Notes under the pieces: generated by a model | Seen by the model: only the letters and a program-made list of their open reading frames with translations | Told to the model about the DNA's origin: nothing | The model's database searches: none | Program-made: the position numbers and the translations under genes | From: an uncultured delta proteobacterium | GTDB lineage: Bacteria > Desulfobacterota > BSN033 > UBA1163 | Length of the DNA: 64,000 bases | Reading direction: 5' to 3' | Assembly (NCBI GenBank): GCA_963708295.1 | Contig: CAVPSJ010000011.1 | Span: 96,001-160,000 of the forward strand | Shown: one piece after another, positions 22,249 to 32,372 of the stretch | Numbering within the stretch: the stretch's first letter is position 1 | How the letters are laid out: each line of letters begins with the position of its first letter

Positions 22249-23848
22249 TTAATCAATCGGCATGTCAATCCCCTTTTCTCCGGGCGATTGGGGATCCCAG
22301 AGAAAAAGGTACATGGAGGCATCGCTTGGAAATCGTCTGAAGTTGGCAAAACTTCCATCAAAATACCCCTTCAAAACACAGGGGAAATTGTTCTTGATCT
22401 CCTTCGCGGCCTCTTTCCCGGTAAGGATCCATAAGTCGGTTTCCATCTGCAACATATTGGGCGTAGGGGATATTGGAATGGATATATCGTAAAGACTCTG
22501 TCCTTGGGAAATCAGAGATACTCTAAATTCAAACTCCTTTCCAGGAGTTCTTCCATGACAAAGGGGATTTCGTAATGGCGGTTTTGTGGATACACTCTAA
22601 AATAATGAAGTATTCCCGGAATATACGTTAAGGTATTGACAAAAATCTTATCCCCATCTCTGAGTTGGCTATTTAGATAATTCACCAAACCTCTGAAGTC
22701 TTGTTTCTCGGAGCGATAGTAGAGGGGTAACATCACCAGATTGGATGCGATAAAAAGAATTACGAAGAGGAGGTTTAGATCGGATAAGTTTTCTTAATTT
22801 TCCAAACCTCGCTTCAATAGCATCGAGTGATAAGAATAAAGCAATAAAGAAAAGAGGGAAGAAAATTGATAAAATACCTCGATGTGATGAACTGGGTAAC
22901 ATTTAATAATTTACAATATAAATAAAGTCCACCAATCGGAAGAACGAAAACGCCCAAAAGAATGATAGCATTGCTTCTATTTTTTGAAAAAAAAGGAAAA
23001 AGGATTAGGAAGATGATAGAAATGACCATCAAAGGTAAATGCGGCACCCAGTCATTTAAGATTCCATATACCATTGCGGAAAAGGAACCAAGGTCTTGGA
23101 GACGCGAAGGGATCCATGACAGGTTGACCGTGGTAATTCAAACCAAGAAAAAGAAGCCAGGGAAGACAGAGGAAGAGAATGATGCCGTTGAAGATTAGAA
23201 AGGAGGAGAAAGCGTGGTTTCCTATTATCTTCCCTCAATCGGTAGAACCAGAGAATCTGGGATAGGACAATAAATAGAATAGAGCTGTAACTCGTATAAA
23301 ATAAAGTGGCGAAAAAGAATGCAGCAGGAATCAGGTATCGTCTTTCTGAAGTTTGCAGATGCCTCATAAAAAAATAGAGACCTGCCATTCCAATGAACAT
23401 GATCAATGAATAAGGACGGCCATTCTGGGAAAGATAGATATGATAGGTCATGAAAGTCAAAGAAACGGTACAAGGGATTGCGATATTCGGGGAGAACTGC
23501 CTTGAAAGTAGATAAATCATCGGTATTGACAGATATTCCGAAAATTAAAGGGATGATACGAAGATCTCGTTCTGGTTTTGTAAACGGATAGAATGAATGG
23601 GTGAGAACAAAAAAAAGAGGAGGGTGAAGGTAGGTTGGGTTTTCTTTGTAATACTTTAGCTGGTTTTGGATGCCATCTCTCGAATCATTGAAAGTATGGA
23701 TTTCATCAATCCAGAGGGATTTTTGATCGAAGGTGTAAAATCTTAAGGCGAAAGCTATGAGAACGCAAAGACAAAGAATAAGAATTTCCTTCTTTTTGAT
23801 CTTATCCAAAGATTGAAGTTTGATTTCCATAATGGAAGAGATCTCCAC
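22249..23848 (-). CDS. GT39/ArnT-like (GT-C) membrane glycosyltransferase, copy B; several apparent frameshifts
   Basis: ALRFYTFDQKSLWIDEIHT, LHPPLFFVL, C-terminus FPSDASMYLFLWDPQSPGEKGIDMPID; collinear paralogue of copy A. Confidence 0.72.
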
Positions 23849-25874: not shown

Positions 25875-26308
25875 ATGTTACGGAGAGAAAAAGGTTTTAC
25901 ATTGATTGAGTTGTTAATCGTTATCGCCATCATCGGTATTCTGGCAGCCATTGCCATTCCGATGTATAAGACACAAACGATCAAAGCGAAGACTGACCGA
26001 AGTCACAAATGGCATGAGTAATGTTGCAAGTGCTGTAGCAGCATACATGCAGGAAACAGGTGGTTGGCCTACTGCCACGGACTAAAGCATTAATTCAAAG
26101 CAGTTTGGGCGTTTCAACAGGTGCCCTTGGTAGAGTTTCTCTTATGGGTGTGAACAATGGAGTAATCACTGCGACAGTAACAGCCATTGATGCTACTGTT
26201 GATAACAAAGATTTAGTAATGCAGCCAACTTCAAATACGGATGGATCTATCACTTGGAATTGGACTACCAGCAACGGTATGCCACCGGCGTATATCCCCA
26301 AACGATAA
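25875..26308 (+). CDS. pilA: Type IVa major pilin (PilA); two apparent frameshifts near 25990 and 26082; N-terminus missing from the ORF track
   Basis: MLRREKG|[24 protein letters not shown] class III signal, AAGGAGG SD, sigma54 promoter; continues [15 protein letters not shown]... to PPAYIPKR. Confidence 0.88.
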
Positions 26309-26323
26309 TCTAAGATCTCTGAT

Positions 26324-26380
26324 AATAATGTTGGTGCCTGAGGAATTGTTTAAGCGATATCTTTGGGCACCAACATTATT
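26324..26380 (+). terminator. Long stem-loop after pilA (terminator or mRNA-stabilising hairpin)
   Basis: AATAATGTTGGTGCC ... GGCACCAACATTATT perfect 15-bp inverted repeat followed by TGATTTT. Confidence 0.7.
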
Positions 26381-26428
26381 TGATTTTGGAAGACAGAACC
26401 CTTTGTTTTGAGAAAGTAAGGGTTTTAA

Positions 26429-26871
26429 ATGAAAAAGAATAAATCAGGTTTCACACTGATCGAGATGTTGGTAGTGATCGCAATCATCGGCATTTTGGCT
26501 GCGGTTGCCCTTCCTCTTTATAAGGGTTATACAATAATGTCTAAATTATCTGAAGTGGAGAACGCGATGTCCACTGTTGCAAGTGGCGTTACAGGATATT
26601 ACGAAACTCAAAACTCTTGGCCTGATTGTCCTACGATACCTGCGGTTGGAAACAGCTTAGGAGTGGCATTGGGAGCTATCGGAAGGATTAATACACTATC
26701 GGTTTCAGGTGCAGATGGCAGATCACTGCGCAGGTACAAAATATTCATCCAATGGTGGATGGCAAGACATTGACATTGACACCCAGTACGGATACTGATA
26801 GTTCAATGACATGGACTTGGGGATGGTCCCCGGATTTTCCTCCCCAGTTTAGGCCTAAGGATGGTAGATGA
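26429..26871 (+). CDS. Second PilA-like pilin, paralogue of the upstream pilin; one apparent frameshift near 26720
   Basis: G|[24 protein letters not shown]; corrected C-terminus [21 protein letters not shown]...FRPKDGR is collinear with pilA. Confidence 0.85.
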
Positions 26872-27282
26872 AAATGTTTCCGATGAAATCCAATAGAGGA
26901 TTTACACTTATTGAATTATTGATCGTGGTAGCAATTATAGGAATACTTGCGGCAATTGCAATCCCCATGTATACAAATTACATGGTAAGGGCACGACGGG
27001 CCGATGCCAAAACGGCCTTGGAACAATTAAGAGCTGCTCAGGAGATGTGAAGGGCGGAGCAGGGAGTTATTCGACTAGTTTAGCACAACTTCAAACCACA
27101 TATGGGGTTCCAATTGTAGCTGGCCCCCCTGGGAGTACGGATTATGCTATCTTGTTGAACTCTGCGACTGCAAAGCTTTTTGGCGCAAGCGAATCCCACA
27201 TCATCAAGGCAGATTAGTGATGGAAGTTTATTTATTGACCAATAATGGTGTCAAAACCCCAGCCGTAAATGGGCCAAAGTAG
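26868..27282 (+). CDS. PilE-like minor pilin; in-frame TGA at 27048-27050 and further apparent frameshifts
   Basis: G|[40 protein letters not shown] (PilE-type RRxDA); pilin-like sequence continues past the stop. Confidence 0.72.
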
Positions 27283-27414
27283 ATTTCAGATGATCGGAAA
27301 CTGTATAAAGCATAAGCGTCAAGTGAAAGAGAAAGCAAGATAATTCTATTTATCTTGCTTTTTTTGTTTAATCATTATAGTAAAGCTGCGAAAGGAGTTT
27401 TTACGGCTTTAAAA

Positions 27415-28358
27415 ATGGACCTTTCAATTGTTATTCCAATGTTTAATGAGGCTGAGAATGCAGAATCTACCCTGAACCGGGTTGAGGAGGCATTGGCTTC
27501 TTTCCATGGGACATATGAGATTATCGCAGTCAATGACGGAAGTCTCGATAATACCCTTGACATTTTGAATAGATTAGCGGAACAAGATGGGAAATTGAAA
27601 GTTGTTTCTTACTCGAAGAATGTCGGCCGTGGAATGGCATTAAAGAAAGGTTTTAAGGAATCGAGCGGAGAGATCATCGTTTCCATCGATGCTGATCTGA
27701 GTTACCATCCTCAATTACATAATCGATTTTGTTGAAACATTAAGAACAGAACAAGATATCGATTTTGTTCTTGCGTCTCCCTACATGCCAGGGGGAGGTG
27801 TCGAAAATGTACCATTTCTTCGCCTATGGATCAGCAAATTCGGGAACAAGATACTTCAGATTTGCCATGCCCAACCGGATTTATACTTCTACTGGAATCT
27901 TCCGCGCCTACCGGAAAAAGGTTCTTGATTCTCTTGAGCTTGAATCTGATGGGAAAGAGATCCATCTTGAAATTCTTTCTAAGGCATTAGCCCTTGGATA
28001 TCGTGTTAAAGAGAGCCCTGCGATATCTAACCAGTCGGAAAGAGAGGTAAATCCAAATTCAAATTTAGGAAAACGGCTATCTCCCATCTGGTTTTTTCTG
28101 TTTTTGAAAAACCCGATGATCATATTTGGTTTTATTGGTCTCTTAACTCTCGCGATTGGCTTCTTGATTGGCATATATATTGCCTATTTAAGATTTTCAG
28201 GAGACTTAACTCCTGGAAGACCATTAATCACATTTGCCATCTTATTGATTTTAGGAGGAATTCAGATACTTTCATTTGGATTTATTGCGATACAAATTGT
28301 TTCACTTCGTAGAGAGATTCTCCGTATTCAAAAGGAAAATCTGGAATTAAGAAAATGA
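27415..28358 (+). CDS. GT2 glycosyltransferase, DPM1-like with C-terminal TM helices; frameshifted
   Basis: IPMFNE, VNDGS, IDADLSY; TM pair at the C-terminus. Confidence 0.82.
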
Positions 28359-28363
28359 TCTCC

Positions 28364-28902
28364 TAAGGAAGCCATGAAGGCAGGAAAGGTTTAGAACATA
28401 AGACTTGACCGATAAAATAATTGGTTGTGCTATTGAGGTTCACAAGAAATTGGGACCTGGTTTCTTGGAATCGATTTACGAAAATGCGTTTATTCTCGAA
28501 CTGAGAAGCACAAAAGTTACAAGTTGCAAGCGGCAACAAGAAGTCATCGTCAAATATGATGGTATTGAAGTCGGAAGGCACAGACTCGATCTCATTGTAA
28601 ACGATACTATCGTCGTTGAGTTGAAGGCAGTCAAAAATATTGAAGATGTCATTTCGCGATTGTGAAGTCTTATCTTAAAGCCCTGGGAAAGGAACATGGT
28701 TTAATCATAAATTTCTCCAAACCTGTTTTGGAGGTAAAAAGGGTTATTCATAAATAAATTCCTGTATTCCTGGCTTCCTTATTATAAGGAATGCAGGAAG
28801 GCATGAAAAAAGCATATTATTCCCGTAATTCTGGCCTTTATTTAAGTCCATGAAGCAAAATGACTTCGTTGTTCTGAATTCTCCTGTATTCATGACTTCT
28901 TA
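28364..28902. repeat. Array of ~23-bp inverted repeats (TAAG-GAAGCCAG-GAA(G/T)(G/A)CAG-GAA) enclosing and following the GxxExxY gene
   Basis: Forward copies 28364-28386 and 28785-28807; reverse copies 28759-28781, 28820-28840 (degenerate), 28881-28902. Confidence 0.8.
28374..28757 (+). CDS. GxxExxY protein (PD-(D/E)XK nuclease-like family); frameshifted
   Basis: IIGCAIEVHKKLGPGFLESIYENA (GxxExxY), RLDLIV...VELK, IINF near the C-terminus. Confidence 0.88.
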
Positions 28903-30066
28903 TGAGATTTTATTCCTTACTAATGCTTATCCTGATTTTGAATCCTCCTATCGGGGCATTTTTATAAAAAAAATGGCTTCGAACTGCTACGAGATGAGGA
29001 TATGAAATCTCTGTTGTTACTCCAAAGATTTATAAAGAGAGCCATTATTTTGAAGAACAGAATGGGATAAAGGTCTATCGTTTCCCCTTTTTTGCAAGAA
29101 ACAAACTCTTAATTGAATATAAAAAGATTCCATATTTGAGAATGATTCTTTATTACACTACTGGATTCTTCTTAACAATTTATGCAGTGCTCAAAAACAG
29201 ATGCAATCTGATTCATATTCATTGGGCAATTCCAACAGGACTTATCGGTGTTTGGGTTGGCACCCTTCTAAGAAAACCTCTTGTTGTTACGATTCACGGG
29301 TCTGATCTCAGGATGGCTCTTGAAAGATCCAGATTTGTTAGAAGGCTTTTTATTTATGTTTGCAAGAAGGCAGACCATCTCAATTGTGTTTCAGAGGTGC
29401 AGAAAAAAGAATTAGAACGATTGGGTGTCCCAAGTGAAAAAATCTCGACAATTCCAATGGGTATTGATGCAGCATTTTTAGACACCGGGAAGAATAGGGG
29501 AGTGGAATCGAGGAACAGACCTATCACAATTCTCAGCAATCGAAACCTTCTTCCGATCTATAATGTTTCTTTGTTGATTCGGGCCATTCCAATTGTCCTG
29601 AAAGAAGAGCCAGAAACAAAGTTTCTGATCGCTGGGGATGGAACTGAGAGAAAAGCTTTGGAAAGAGAAGTAGAGAGTTTGAATATCAATTCATCCGTAA
29701 AATTCTTGGGGCGGGTGCCCCACGAGGAGATGCCAAACCTTTTATCTCAAGCAGATATTTATGTATCGACCTCTCTCCACGATGGGACATCAGTTTCATT
29801 GCTTGAGGCAATGGGATCAGGAGCTTTTCCGGTGGTTACAGATATTCCAGCCAACAGGGAGTGGATTACTAATGGAGAAAACGGATTTCTTAGTTCCTGC
29901 AGATGAAGCAGAATCCTTAGCAAGTAAGATTATCGATGCTATTCGTAACCGTGAATTGTTAGAGAAAAGCCGAGAAAGAAATCGCTTAATTGTCGAGCAA
30001 AAGGCTCTCTGGCCCGAGTATATCAAAAGAGTTAAGAATATCTATGCAAATATTTTGAATTCATAA
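28902..30066 (+). CDS. GT4 glycosyltransferase; apparent frameshifts
   Basis: N-terminal LFLTNAYP, HIHWAIP, TIHGSD, SVSLLEAMGSG. Confidence 0.82.
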
Positions 30067-30075
30067 AGTTGGAAG

Positions 30076-30091
30076 TGGTATAGAAATTGCT
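30076..30091 (+). promoter_or_regulatory. Sigma54-type promoter inside the glycosylation island
   Basis: TGGTAT-AGAAA-TTGCT (GG-N10-GC) at the start of a 420-nt intergenic region. Confidence 0.6.
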
Positions 30092-30284
30092 TATTTCTTT
30101 TCAATAATTACCAATTCAAACCTCGTGAGGAATCAATGTTTGGAGATTTTTTTTAATAATTTCAGATGCTTAAGATAATTATTATATTTTTTTCATTTTT
30201 GTGTTCAAGCGATGAACGGATTACAAAAATAGTCCTTTGATTTACAAAAGTTGCCAAACATATAGGTCAAGAGTCGATAGGTCA

Positions 30285-30411
30285 GGGTAAGGATGCCGGT
30301 TTGGTTAAAGGGCTATGTTGTTGGGCTTTAAGACCTTTTACATAACCATTTAACTATAGACCAAACTGGCTTCGTAGCCTTTACCCAAAACCATTTCCCG
30401 GTTCAATGGTT
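30285..30411 (+). other. Long imperfect hairpin plus a small hairpin in the leader of the MarR-type regulator
   Basis: GGGTAAGG/CCTTTACCC, GCCGGTTTGGT/ACCAAACTGGC, TAAAGGGCTATGT/ACATAACCATTTA nested arms; then AACCATT-N9-AATGGTT. Confidence 0.6.
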
Positions 30412-30485
30412 AAGAAGACTTAACGATCAGTCGCCAAAATGGAAAAACAGGTAGAAAGCCCAAACATATTTAAACCATCGGACAG

Positions 30486-31067
30486 ATGAGGGATCTCCGA
30501 CTTCTTGAAGAGTTGGAGAAAAATCCTATCGTTTCCCAACGCGAGCTGAGTCACAAATTCGGCATCGCTTTAGGGGTAACGAATGCCTGCCTCAAAAGGA
30601 TGGCTCGGAAGGGGTTGATTCGAATCCGAGGTTTGAACCATCGGAAAATCGGATACTATTTAACTCCAAAAGGTTTTGCAGAGAAGGCGAAACTTACTCT
30701 TCATCTCATTTCTTATATCGTTCAACATTATTCAGAATTGAAGAAAATCATTAGTCAGAGACTCTTAGAGATGCAAGGCGATGGGTTGCAGCGGATTGTT
30801 TTTTACGGGGTGAGCGATGAGATGGAGGTTGCCTACGTTACTCTTCAGGGAGTGAATCTGAAGTTAGTTGGAATTGTTGAAGATGATGAGAAAATGACAC
30901 CTCAAATTATCTTTGGCTATGAAATAGAACCTGTGAGCCGTGTTCAGGAACTCAAACCCGACGGCATATTGATCACTTCTTTAACGGAGAACGAACAGAA
31001 AAGAGAGAGACTCAAAGGTATCTTCAAGCAAAATTCGATTTGTATAAAAGATATTTGCGTTCCATAA
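30486..31067 (+). CDS. Winged-helix (MarR-like, EPS-locus type) transcriptional regulator with C-terminal Rossmann-like domain; start may be 30439
   Basis: SQRELSHKFGIALGVTNACLKRM, YYLTPKGFAEK. Confidence 0.82.
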   Translation: MRDLRLLEELEKNPIVSQRELSHKFGIALGVTNACLKRMARKGLIRIRGLNHRKIGYYLTPKGFAEKAKLTLHLISYIVQHYSELKKIISQRLLEMQGDGLQRIVFYGVSDEMEVAYVTLQGVNLKLVGIVEDDEKMTPQIIFGYEIEPVSRVQELKPDGILITSLTENEQKRERLKGIFKQNSICIKDICVP

Positions 31068-31193
31068 GGAAGCCAGGAAATGATGAATGGAAAGTTTTGA
31101 TTAAGGAGATTATCTTTCACGATGGATGTCTTACCTAAGTAGATTTTGGACACGAGACACAGACACGGTCACGTTATTTTCCGGATTGATGAA

Positions 31194-32372
31194 ATGAAGG
31201 TCATGACAGCCATGTATACGATTAGAAGAGGGGGGGCTTACGACAGGTTCATTATGATGCTTGAGGCCTTTCTGGATAGAAATTGTGAAACGCATTGTCT
31301 CTCGCTTACGCCTATCCCGATCACCAATTCTTATTTTCATAATCATGTCATGTATCTTCCACTTAAATCGGTACATGGATTAATTGCTAAATTGGCTGTA
31401 GTATTTGTATTCCCTCTATGGTCTTTCTGGGTCGCCTGGAGAGAGAAGATTGATCTTATTATCGCCTTCGGATCTCTCTATGCCTTTCTGCAAGGTTTTT
31501 CTAAGTGGATATTGAAAAAACCAATGGTGACATTGATCAGGGGAAGCTCCTACTTTGGCTTAACAACTCAAAGCTCACCCCGATACCTTCTTCATCTCAT
31601 TAAGATAGTTGAATATTTCGGGCTTCTACTTTCTGACCGGATCATCACTAATAATATGGCCACAAGAAATGAGATGTTAAAGAGGTTAGGCAAGAGGAAG
31701 AACATCGACGTCCAGATCTTGTATAACAATATCCCTCCAATGAACATTCGTGAACCAGAAGATATTTCCAATACGAGAGACAAATATGGCATTCCTGGAG
31801 ATGCAAAGGTTCTAGTGACCGCTGGCATTCTAAACCGGGGTAAGAACATTGAAACTCTTATAGAAAGTCCCTTTCGAAGATTCGAAATGAAAAACGTTTA
31901 TCTCATAATCGTTGGAGATGGCTCAACAGAGGCCGATTTAGGCTATAAAGATTCGCTGCAAGGATTCGCGAAGACAATTAGGGGTTGATAAAAAGGTTAT
32001 TTTTACAGGGTGGCTTGAAAAGGAAGACTTGTGGAAGATTTATCTTGCATCCGATCTCTTTGTATTGCCTTCATTGAGTGAAGGGATGCCCAATGCCATG
32101 TTAGAAGCACTGGGACTTGATTTGCCTTGTCTCGGAAGCAATATTCCCGGAATCAAGGATATTCTCCAATATGATGAACTTCTTTTTGATCCTTTTGATG
32201 TAGAATCATTTTCTTCAGAATTCAAAGGATATTTTCTCATGCCAATGATTTCGATGCGGTGAGACAATTGTGTCAGGAAAGAAAGAGCAAATTCATTTTT
32301 GATTGGAAGGAAAGGTTTTATGGGTTAAGTTGTGCATTTTCATCCAAAACATGTTCTTGGGAAAGTGGGTAA
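31194..32372 (+). CDS. GT4 glycosyltransferase; frameshifted, end approximate
   Basis: GKNIETLI, DLFVLPSLSEGMPNAMLEA. Confidence 0.8.

Follow-up and report, generated by a model that had tools for sequence, protein, structure and literature searches.

We report here a small unit that looks like an undescribed kind of selfish DNA cassette. It lies in a 64,000-nt stretch of DNA (hereafter the window) from an uncultured delta proteobacterium (assembly GCA_963708295.1, contig CAVPSJ010000011.1, positions 96,001 to 160,000). The unit comprises a gene of the GxxExxY family, whose product has a predicted PD-(D/E)XK nuclease fold, and two 23-nt inverted arms built from 8-nt repeats, and it sits between a GT2 and a GT4 glycosyltransferase gene. 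As supported by the same junction in relatives, the gene and its arms behave as one unit that comes and goes at a gene boundary. We give a probability of roughly 0.6 to the view that it belongs to a widespread family of selfish mini-cassettes that ride in operons, and we favour to a like degree a mobile cassette family in which the arms would serve as cis sites.

The unit comes and goes at the GT2/GT4 junction

The C-terminus of the GT2 protein was searched in 61 related genomes, which gave 17 matches, and the GT2-to-GT4 junction was then read in 18 loci (numbered with L below). Presence or absence of a cassette was called from the junction sequences together with family scans. The junction is empty (46-59 nt) in L074, L075 and L081, holds a short filler (84-131 nt) in L070, L077 and L080, and measures 284 nt in L078. 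A GxxExxY cassette with arms of the GGAA type occupies it in the window, L067, L068 (identical to L007), L079 (identical to L006) and L004, and also in L005. Elsewhere it is filled by a four-helix-bundle gene of the TIGR02436/PF05635 family, the '23S rRNA intervening-sequence protein' family, with GCATAGRG-type arms in L071 and GGTAAAGGTTAAG-type arms in L069, L072, L073 and L076. L069, L072 and L076 retain a GGAA-type right arm before the GT4 ATG. In L069, a small GIY-YIG gene (PF01541) additionally interrupts the four-helix-bundle gene (2082-2800), and this insert is flanked by CCCCGGAGGG-type palindromic motifs. By eye only, a GIY-YIG gene nested within a four-helix-bundle gene is also seen in the window's own genome, at C15:199304-200061.

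Five junction states are found within one genus, where the empty state is 46 nt long. The initial annotation of this DNA, made from its letters, had proposed that the unit inserts at gene boundaries and that empty-site alleles should exist; the same junction is indeed empty or otherwise filled in congeners. The tree of the GT2 and GT4 flanks comes close to a polytomy, 10 of its 13 inner branches being open, so that gain and loss at the junction are not orderable. Its sole supported sister pair, L067 and L069 (support 90/94), carries different cassettes, and thus cassette content changes faster than the flanking genes diverge.

Where a GGAA right arm is present, the GT4 protein begins MRILFLTNAY from an ATG at the arm end, and elsewhere it begins MSKSILFLT; in the orthologues L006, L067 and L007 the last arm meets the GT4 start as CTTCCTT-ATG-A(G/A)GATTTT. 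The GT2 stop, the Shine-Dalgarno (SD) sequence and the cassette ATG of L006 all lie within the left arm. Since the tail of GT2 and the first codons of GT4 are replaced by the cassette, no target-site duplication was evident when filled and empty alleles of this junction were compared. In three public DNA runs, joints skip from 28340, 28346 or 28356 to 28906 or 28910 of the window, with sides of 32-64 nt and unknown letters between; such joints are at most a hint of cassette-free or other-cassette alleles. At a second junction of the operon (31065-31087), two relatives have gene-less pairs, of the GGAA type in L100 and of the GGTAAGG type in L099, and a third, L101, has nothing.

Arm type follows the clade of the enclosed protein

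A scan for GxxExxY homologues returned 62 loci, of which 51 were usable. At each, the 160 nt preceding the gene were aligned to the reverse-complemented 160 nt that follow it. Flank scores had a median of 35, compared with 16 for shuffled sequences and 17 for cross-locus pairs, and 23 of the 51 loci exceeded the 95th percentile of the cross-locus pairs (10 exceeded the 99th). In a second scoring, 36 of the 51 loci scored at least 30, with the purine-rich arm upstream in 27 of these 36. The arms are arrays of ~8-nt units whose cores differ by locus: GGAA, CGAA(A), CGGA(T), AGGAT, GGGAT or CTGAAG. In the 27 loci with the forward arm upstream, a co-directional open reading frame (ORF) ends at the left arm in 22 and another starts just after the right arm in 20.

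Mapped onto a phylogeny of the 51 proteins, the arm labels require 15 changes, compared with a shuffled mean of 24.1, and none of 200 shuffles reached so low a number. Host phyla are mixed within each arm type, and Planctomycetota and Verrucomicrobiota each hold several types. Even within the window's own genome, the second GxxExxY gene has CGAAT-type arms, unlike the copy described here. Arm type follows the GxxExxY protein clade and not the host phylum. That homologues should be flanked by inverted repeats co-varying with protein clade was a prediction of the initial annotation; flanking arms are present at 36 of the 51.

Gene-less arm pairs are abundant in other genomes

The exact 23-nt arm pattern TAAGGAANNCAGGAANNCAGGAA occurs in at least 126 stretches of the species collection against ~4 expected, and most of these are gene-less. 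Eighty fetched loci contain 98 arm instances, 50 of which have a partner within 150 nt; they correspond to ~42 distinct gene-less pairs, a figure obtained by our own de-duplication of palindromic double counts. Among the other instances, 31 have no partner at up to 4 mismatches and 15 have one 151-750 nt away. All five arm pairs spaced 388-503 nt apart enclose a GxxExxY gene, and no recognised gene lies between arm pairs spaced 156-280 or 609-667 nt apart.

Five genomes carry 101, 105, 78, 18 and 28 arm copies, with forward and reverse copies about equally frequent and none for a reversed-pattern control, and the same genomes have 4, 9, 3, 4 and 11 GxxExxY matches, respectively. In G063, a Planctomycetia genome of 10 Mb, a dispersed ~200-nt repeat with conserved flanks is built around the GGAA hairpin, present as ~40 pairs (L230-L249), and the variable NN letters of its arms are nearly uniform across copies. 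Of 151 genomes sampled evenly from one phylum, 12 have the arm, and all 12 contain a GxxExxY gene, compared with 76 of the 151 overall (Fisher p 1.7e-4; 3.3e-4 with the seed genome left out). Related genomes do not count as independent, so these p-values overstate the association.

The hairpin was also found in contigs of a sediment metatranscriptome (run X18), which have an exact 58-nt copy of window positions 28757-28814, a reverse arm joined by TTA to a forward arm, in unrelated flanks. Gene-less units with other spacers are seen in X18 contigs too. The hairpin is therefore present at other loci or in other organisms and reaches RNA libraries. This evidence comes from contigs only, and the largest share of the sampled words in any public run was 0.16.

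Cassettes and hairpins in the window's own genome

Fifteen cassettes were identified in the window's own genome, 13 with a four-helix-bundle gene (TIGR02436) and 2 with a GxxExxY gene, all of them between co-directional genes. Examples of the former are C15:871, C12:43953, C4:260943, C7:63605 and C15:197991-207330 (C numbers denote contigs). Inverted arrays that beat all 50 shuffles flank 12 of the 13 four-helix-bundle genes; their unit sequences differ, and each of the 15 cassettes has a unit sequence of its own. Six cassettes lie in glycan or exopolysaccharide (EPS) loci and nine in other operons (metF, acyl-CoA dehydrogenase, thiamine, two-component system, liv ABC, xanthine dehydrogenase, queH and others). 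With nine of the 15 outside glycan loci, the suggestion that the element helps to reshuffle glycan genes is left without support. Five four-helix-bundle genes lie within ~10 kb of an exosortase/EPS locus.

Gene-less arrays are frequent in this genome as well. Relative to a null, 48 neighbouring pairs of heptamer or octamer arrays exceed the 99.9th percentile; in 28 of these pairs, no more than 150 nt separate the arrays. Multi-copy families of gene-less hairpins are seen, for example, at C1:58831, C14:10736, C12:28303, C15:183642 and C8:145197, with units such as CTAAACT, ATGGAGTG, CAAATGT and AAATTCG. One unit, AGTGATCAG, is common to a gene-less family and the four-helix-bundle cassette at C4:260883. 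At C14:41702-42397, a 133-aa ORF lies between inverted heptamer arrays; it resembles a DUF559/Vsr-type endonuclease and may represent a fourth family of the cassette design.

Observations that weigh against mobility

Several observations argue against reading the unit as a mobile element. In the window's own genome, the GGAA arms show no dispersal. Allowing one mismatch, four of five genome-wide arm matches lie in this locus and the fifth looks like chance, and the dispersed copies anticipated by the initial annotation are thus missing, all good copies being confined to this locus. The closest protein homologues, L004-L007, all sit at the orthologous junction, which points to vertical inheritance here. 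The number of gene-less units 3' of the gene varies from 0 (L006, L007) through 1 (L067) and 2 (window) to 3 (L005), with two right arms in tandem taking their place in L004, and such variation fits local tandem duplication with no need for transposition. The gene-bearing form showed neither an excision product nor a target-site duplication, and no identical copy that had recently transposed was seen. Among the homologues, 10 of 51 lack arms within 160 nt, the arm orientation is reversed in 8 of 36, and the arm labels used for the tree test were assigned by eye. The co-occurrence result is tempered by the presence of GxxExxY in half of the sampled genomes anyway and by the kinship of those genomes. 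Finally, unrelated proteins, including a non-nuclease four-helix-bundle protein, occur within the same kind of arms, so the enclosed protein may be cargo and not engine.

The proposal of a selfish or recombinational element therefore stands in part: turnover at the gene boundary and abundant gene-less copies elsewhere speak for it, and the lack of dispersal in the own genome speaks against it.

Anatomy of the locus in the window

The features of the locus are listed in Table 1. Reading the window DNA confirmed the arm coordinates and sequences of the initial annotation, and the inverted repeat it had described around the GxxExxY gene is real. The composition of the arms from 8-nt units also held: the unit pattern GGAANNCAKGAANNCAKGAA, allowing two mismatches, matches the window 5 times against 0.36 expected, none of 100 shuffles reaches 5, and Tandem Repeats Finder reports a period of 8 at 28758-28783. 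A 15-mer with up to three mismatches, a weaker control, gave 7 window matches against 2.95 expected, and 3 of 100 shuffles had as many. A chance origin of the arms was rejected by the unit-pattern shuffles, by the flank scores relative to shuffled and cross-locus pairs and by the excess of 23-nt matches in the species collection.

Two further points of the initial annotation needed revision. It had read the sequence downstream of the gene as 'empty cassettes'. The arm pairs are there, and the reverse copies begin at 28760, 28821 and 28882, a spacing of 61 nt; the two gene-less units, the first at 28783-28842, are decayed, with single-strand folds no better than shuffles (z +0.81 and -1.05), and are better read as tandem duplications with a 61-66-nt period. 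It had also stated that the left arm supplies the SD sequence and the start codon of the gene. This is so in intact orthologues, as in L006, where the ATG of the left arm is in frame with the GxxExxY gene, but in the window the ATG at 28374 is out of frame with the body of the gene.

Table 1 Features of the cassette locus in the window.
Feature	Position	Strand	Remarks
Upstream GT2 glycosyltransferase	27355..28358	+	Split in the assembly into 27355-27735 and 27765-28358; stop TGA 28356-28358; NCBIfam GT2-type matches
Left arm, TAAGGAAGCCATGAAGGCAGGAA	28364..28386	+	TAAGGAA plus 8-nt units; contains SD-like AAGGA and ATG 28374-28376; begins 5 nt past the GT2 stop
GxxExxY / PDDEXK_3 nuclease-fold gene	28374..28757	+	Stop TAA 28755-28757; five indels relative to orthologues
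Right arm, inverse of the left arm	28759..28781	-	23 nt, 20/23 (87%) complementary; directly 3' of the GxxExxY stop
Second forward arm	28785..28807	+	3-nt spacer after the right arm; tight hairpin with 28759-28781, loop TTA
Degenerate reverse arm, closing the first gene-less unit	28820..28840	-	72% identity to the first reverse copy
Degenerate forward arm, opening the second gene-less unit	28843..28863	+	Weak; assigned by likeness to intact gene-less units of L005 and L067
Last reverse arm	28880..28902	-	89% identity to the first reverse copy; final base is the A of the GT4 ATG 28902-28904
Downstream GT4 glycosyltransferase	28902..30066	+	Start ATG 28902 by homology; G missing after ATGAG, frame split
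Solo forward arm	31065..31087	+	Fifth copy; on the stop of ORF 30486-31067, at the second junction of the same operon

The orthologues of the GT2 gene are unbroken and encode 319-371 aa. Other tandem arrays of the window (23153-23176 and 31149-31167) have no convincing inverted partner. A terminator was considered for the hairpin and rejected: it has no T tract, and a + strand scan of the locus found no terminator. A run of short ORFs with prepilin-type N-terminal motifs, some of them split, lies at 25875-27217, as judged from translations only.

The GxxExxY gene encodes a probable PD-(D/E)XK nuclease

The TIGR04256 profile matches the window gene in two pieces, 28405-28662 (E 3e-26; 92.1 bits against a cut-off of 35) and 28650-28754 (E 4e-6; 27.1 bits, profile positions 86-116), and the intact orthologous protein of L006 scores 128 bits against PF13366. 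The gene is thus assigned to the GxxExxY (TIGR04256) and PDDEXK_3 (PF13366) families above the curated cut-off. The five indels of the window gene were located by alignment with four orthologues. A 99%-identical environmental contig from a public metagenome has an extra T after 28648 that restores the GxxExxY frame. Many genes between 24000 and 33000 are split by frameshifts (GT2 at 27355/27765, GT4 at 28902/29136, 26868/27047 and also the pilin-like ORFs). Since the GT2, GT4 and other window genes are split as well, an indel-prone assembly is indicated and not widespread pseudogenes. Assembly error is the likelier cause of the indels in the GxxExxY gene, and at least one of them is probably of this origin.

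In an alignment of 48 homologues, G19, E22, Y25 and K73 are invariant, and D61 and E71 are conserved in at least 90%. The AlphaFold2 model of the protein (pLDDT 95.4) displays a minimal PD-(D/E)XK core, and its best Foldseek matches are Cas4 SSO0001 (E 4.7e-4, TMq 0.64), lambda exonuclease and MGME1. The predicted core fold and the conserved D...(D/E)xK residues place the protein in the PD-(D/E)XK superfamily, and from D61/E71/K73 together with this fold the protein looks active. A sequence search for a solved structure found none (best E 0.28). The Holliday-junction resolvase Hjc ranked only 42nd in Foldseek, and thus a reading of the protein as a cruciform resolvase has no special support. 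Membership in a defence system was considered and rejected: PADLOC gave only a weak Cas4b match for GxxExxY (E 0.008) and no match for the four-helix-bundle and GIY-YIG proteins. Where PDDEXK_3 is listed in a 2012 survey of the superfamily, it is given as 'Unknown' (PMC3424549).

A model for the cassette

In the model that we favour, two inverted arms enclose a promoterless gene for a PD-(D/E)XK nuclease of ~125 aa. Each arm is a brief run of 8-nt units with the consensus TAAGGAA-NNCAGGAA-NNCAGGAA, and the whole is fitted precisely between two co-transcribed genes, in the sense orientation. The left arm of this lineage brings the SD sequence and the cassette ATG, and in some orthologues the stop of the upstream gene too. 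The right arm ends on the ATG of the downstream gene, so the host operon stays translatable. The window copy appears to be old and vertically inherited, its two 'empty cassettes' being presumably decayed local duplications of the arm junction.

The arms would act as cis sites on DNA, either as tandem binding sites or by forming hairpins or cruciforms. The nuclease may cut at or beside them, and repair or copying after the cut could then spread both the gene-bearing and the gene-less forms. That GxxExxY is itself the mobilising enzyme is tentative, and we would sooner doubt it than assert it. It is tempting to speculate further that GxxExxY is the engine of a new class of bacterial mobile DNA, recognising clade-specific hairpins or tandem sites of 8-nt units and copying itself and gene-less hairpins into operon junctions. 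Together with the four-helix-bundle (S23p), GIY-YIG and DUF559-like cassettes it would form one 'operon-riding mini-cassette' mobilome, of which the ORF-bearing intervening sequences (IVSs) of rRNA would be a special case landed in rRNA. We regard this wider scheme as unlikely in its entirety.

DNA-level arms and alternative explanations

The foremost alternative is an RNA device resembling the rRNA IVSs. The arms would pair across the cassette in the transcript, where RNase III would cut them or the insert would be looped out, and the cistrons would stay coupled; they would be kept to make the insertion harmless to host RNA, not as mobility sites, and such a role could coexist with a mobile cassette. 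An RNA fold of 28355-28910 does pair the first forward arm with the last reverse arm (minimum free energy -162 kcal/mol, z -5.3, none of 100 shuffles as good). In the same direction point the uniform orientation of all 15 own-genome cassettes inside operons, the overlap of the arms with stop, SD and start signals, the presence of the rRNA-IVS protein family PF05635 at the GT2/GT4 junction of sister genomes and the hairpin sequence in RNA-library contigs. In the Coxiella IVS, according to the account in PMC4990558, RNase III cuts a terminal stem of 28 bp.

Against such a device, the arm mismatches are not enriched for G.U pairs of the sense strand: among 153 at 36 loci, 34 are sense-wobble, 42 antisense-wobble and 77 other (p 0.42). 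The hairpin at 28759-28807 is as stable on one DNA strand as on the other (+ strand, -11.4 kcal/mol, z -3.7; - strand, -10.8 kcal/mol, z -4.4). A search of 27000-32000 against Rfam, with E up to 1, found no RNA family match and no rRNA, giving two sub-threshold chance matches only. An RNA device also leaves unexplained the ~100 gene-less copies per genome and their restriction to genomes with GxxExxY. From the missing G.U excess and the strand-independent hairpin, we lean towards arms that act at the DNA level, with RNA processing as a likely side effect, and we consider the RNA device rather improbable as the full explanation.

The arms could instead be intercistronic hairpins that serve the host, akin to the repetitive extragenic palindromic (REP) sequences and bacterial interspersed mosaic elements that stabilise or attenuate mRNA. 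They would grow by slippage, with the small genes as passengers inserted in their loops. The 48 high-scoring array pairs of the own genome, 28 of them closely spaced, would suit such an origin, as would the tandem units, which suggest slippage, and the far greater number of gene-less than gene-bearing forms. However, arm type tracks the protein clade and not the host phylum, each of the 15 own-genome cassettes has its own unit sequence, and the empty junctions of congeners show that the host does not conserve the hairpin; we judge this explanation very unlikely. Purely local repeat expansion by unequal recombination or slippage, with no element, no mobility and mere convergence on SD-like GGA-rich sequence, would account for the 61-nt periodicity of the reverse copies, the varying unit number at the orthologous site and the resemblance of TAAGGA to a stop codon plus SD, but it is largely refuted by the 23-nt pattern at at least 126 loci, by other clades with the same architecture built from non-SD units (CGAAA, CGGAT) and by the conserved ~200-nt dispersed element around the hairpin in one genome, and we give it hardly any credence.

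Significance

No function is known for the GxxExxY/PDDEXK_3 proteins or for the 'four helix bundle / 23S rRNA IVS' proteins, although both families are large and multi-copy. The joint travel of gene and arms, the turnover at the junction and the populations of gene-less hairpins give the GxxExxY family a concrete candidate substrate, namely its own arms. A literature search on GxxExxY/PDDEXK_3, four-helix-bundle proteins, short tandemly repeated repetitive (STRR) sequences and REPIN/RAYT (hairpin-forming REP doublets and REP-associated tyrosine transposases) found no description of a design of gene plus octamer arms; the free-text notes of NCBIfam and Pfam were outside its scope. New here are the multi-state junction, the protein-tree test of arm type, the strand-bias test and the test of co-occurrence between gene and arm. 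The design connects rRNA IVSs, REP-like hairpins and short tandem intergenic repeats. Should the nuclease prove specific for the sequence or structure of programmable 8-nt arrays, its use as a tool would deserve attention. In genome annotation, the arms account for many spurious small ORFs and for the odd extensions that neighbouring genes show at their N- and C-termini.

Comparison with known systems

The cassette resembles integron cassettes in its promoterless sense ORFs, in the imperfect palindromes that bound it and in its variable content at a fixed site. The attC sites of integrons have cores of the GTTRRRY type. The arms described here flank the ORF on both sides and by eye contain no attC-like cores, and their sites are ordinary operon junctions. 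The STRR sequences of cyanobacteria are tandem arrays of short, ~7-nt units in intergenic DNA, and such arrays can form inverted pairs. The arms share with them the short tandem intergenic units and the inverted pairing, but the unit here is 8 nt, the hosts are non-cyanobacterial and there is a defined link to a protein family.

Closer in build are the ORF-bearing IVSs of 23S rRNA in Coxiella and Leptospira (S23p/PF05635), in which an inverted-repeat stem surrounds a small ORF inserted in sense orientation, and which are regarded as selfish and patchy in the account of PMC4990558. Here, too, a small ORF lies within terminal inverted repeats, whose outer arms are predicted to pair in RNA, and the same protein family fills the GT2/GT4 junction in sister genomes. 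The differences are that the cassette sits between protein genes of an mRNA operon and not in helix 25 or 45 of 23S rRNA, and that it has a PD-(D/E)XK nuclease ORF, arms of tandem 8-nt units and large gene-less populations.

The initial annotation had likened the element to REPIN/RAYT, and the analogy holds in design and at the level of the family, though not for the own genome or for the type of protein. Shared with what is described for REPINs are the repeat-flanked protein gene, gene-less hairpin pairs at tens to ~100 copies per genome, mostly vertical inheritance and, in the 151-genome sample, repeats only where the gene is present. In the own genome the good arm copies are confined to one locus; in other genomes, 18-105 arms accompany 3-11 GxxExxY matches. 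RAYTs are HUH Y1 tyrosine transposases of the IS200/IS605 type, unlike the Cas4- and lambda-exonuclease-like PD-(D/E)XK fold of GxxExxY, and a RAYT identity was rejected on this fold and on Pfam and NCBIfam matches to PDDEXK_3 and GxxExxY only. The end tags GTAG or CGTC that PMC3733652 gives for the REP super-families are absent from these arms of tandem octamers. The GxxExxY gene, moreover, is multi-copy, lies inside operons and moves between phyla with its arms.

With free-standing homing endonuclease genes and miniature inverted-repeat transposable elements (MITEs), the unit shares small nuclease genes wedged between genes, including the nested GIY-YIG gene, and gene-less derivatives with the same ends. 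It differs from them in its tandem-unit arms, which are unlike ordinary terminal inverted repeats, and in the lack of an evident target-site duplication at the junction. In G063, near-identical gene-less copies occur with conserved ~200-nt flanks.

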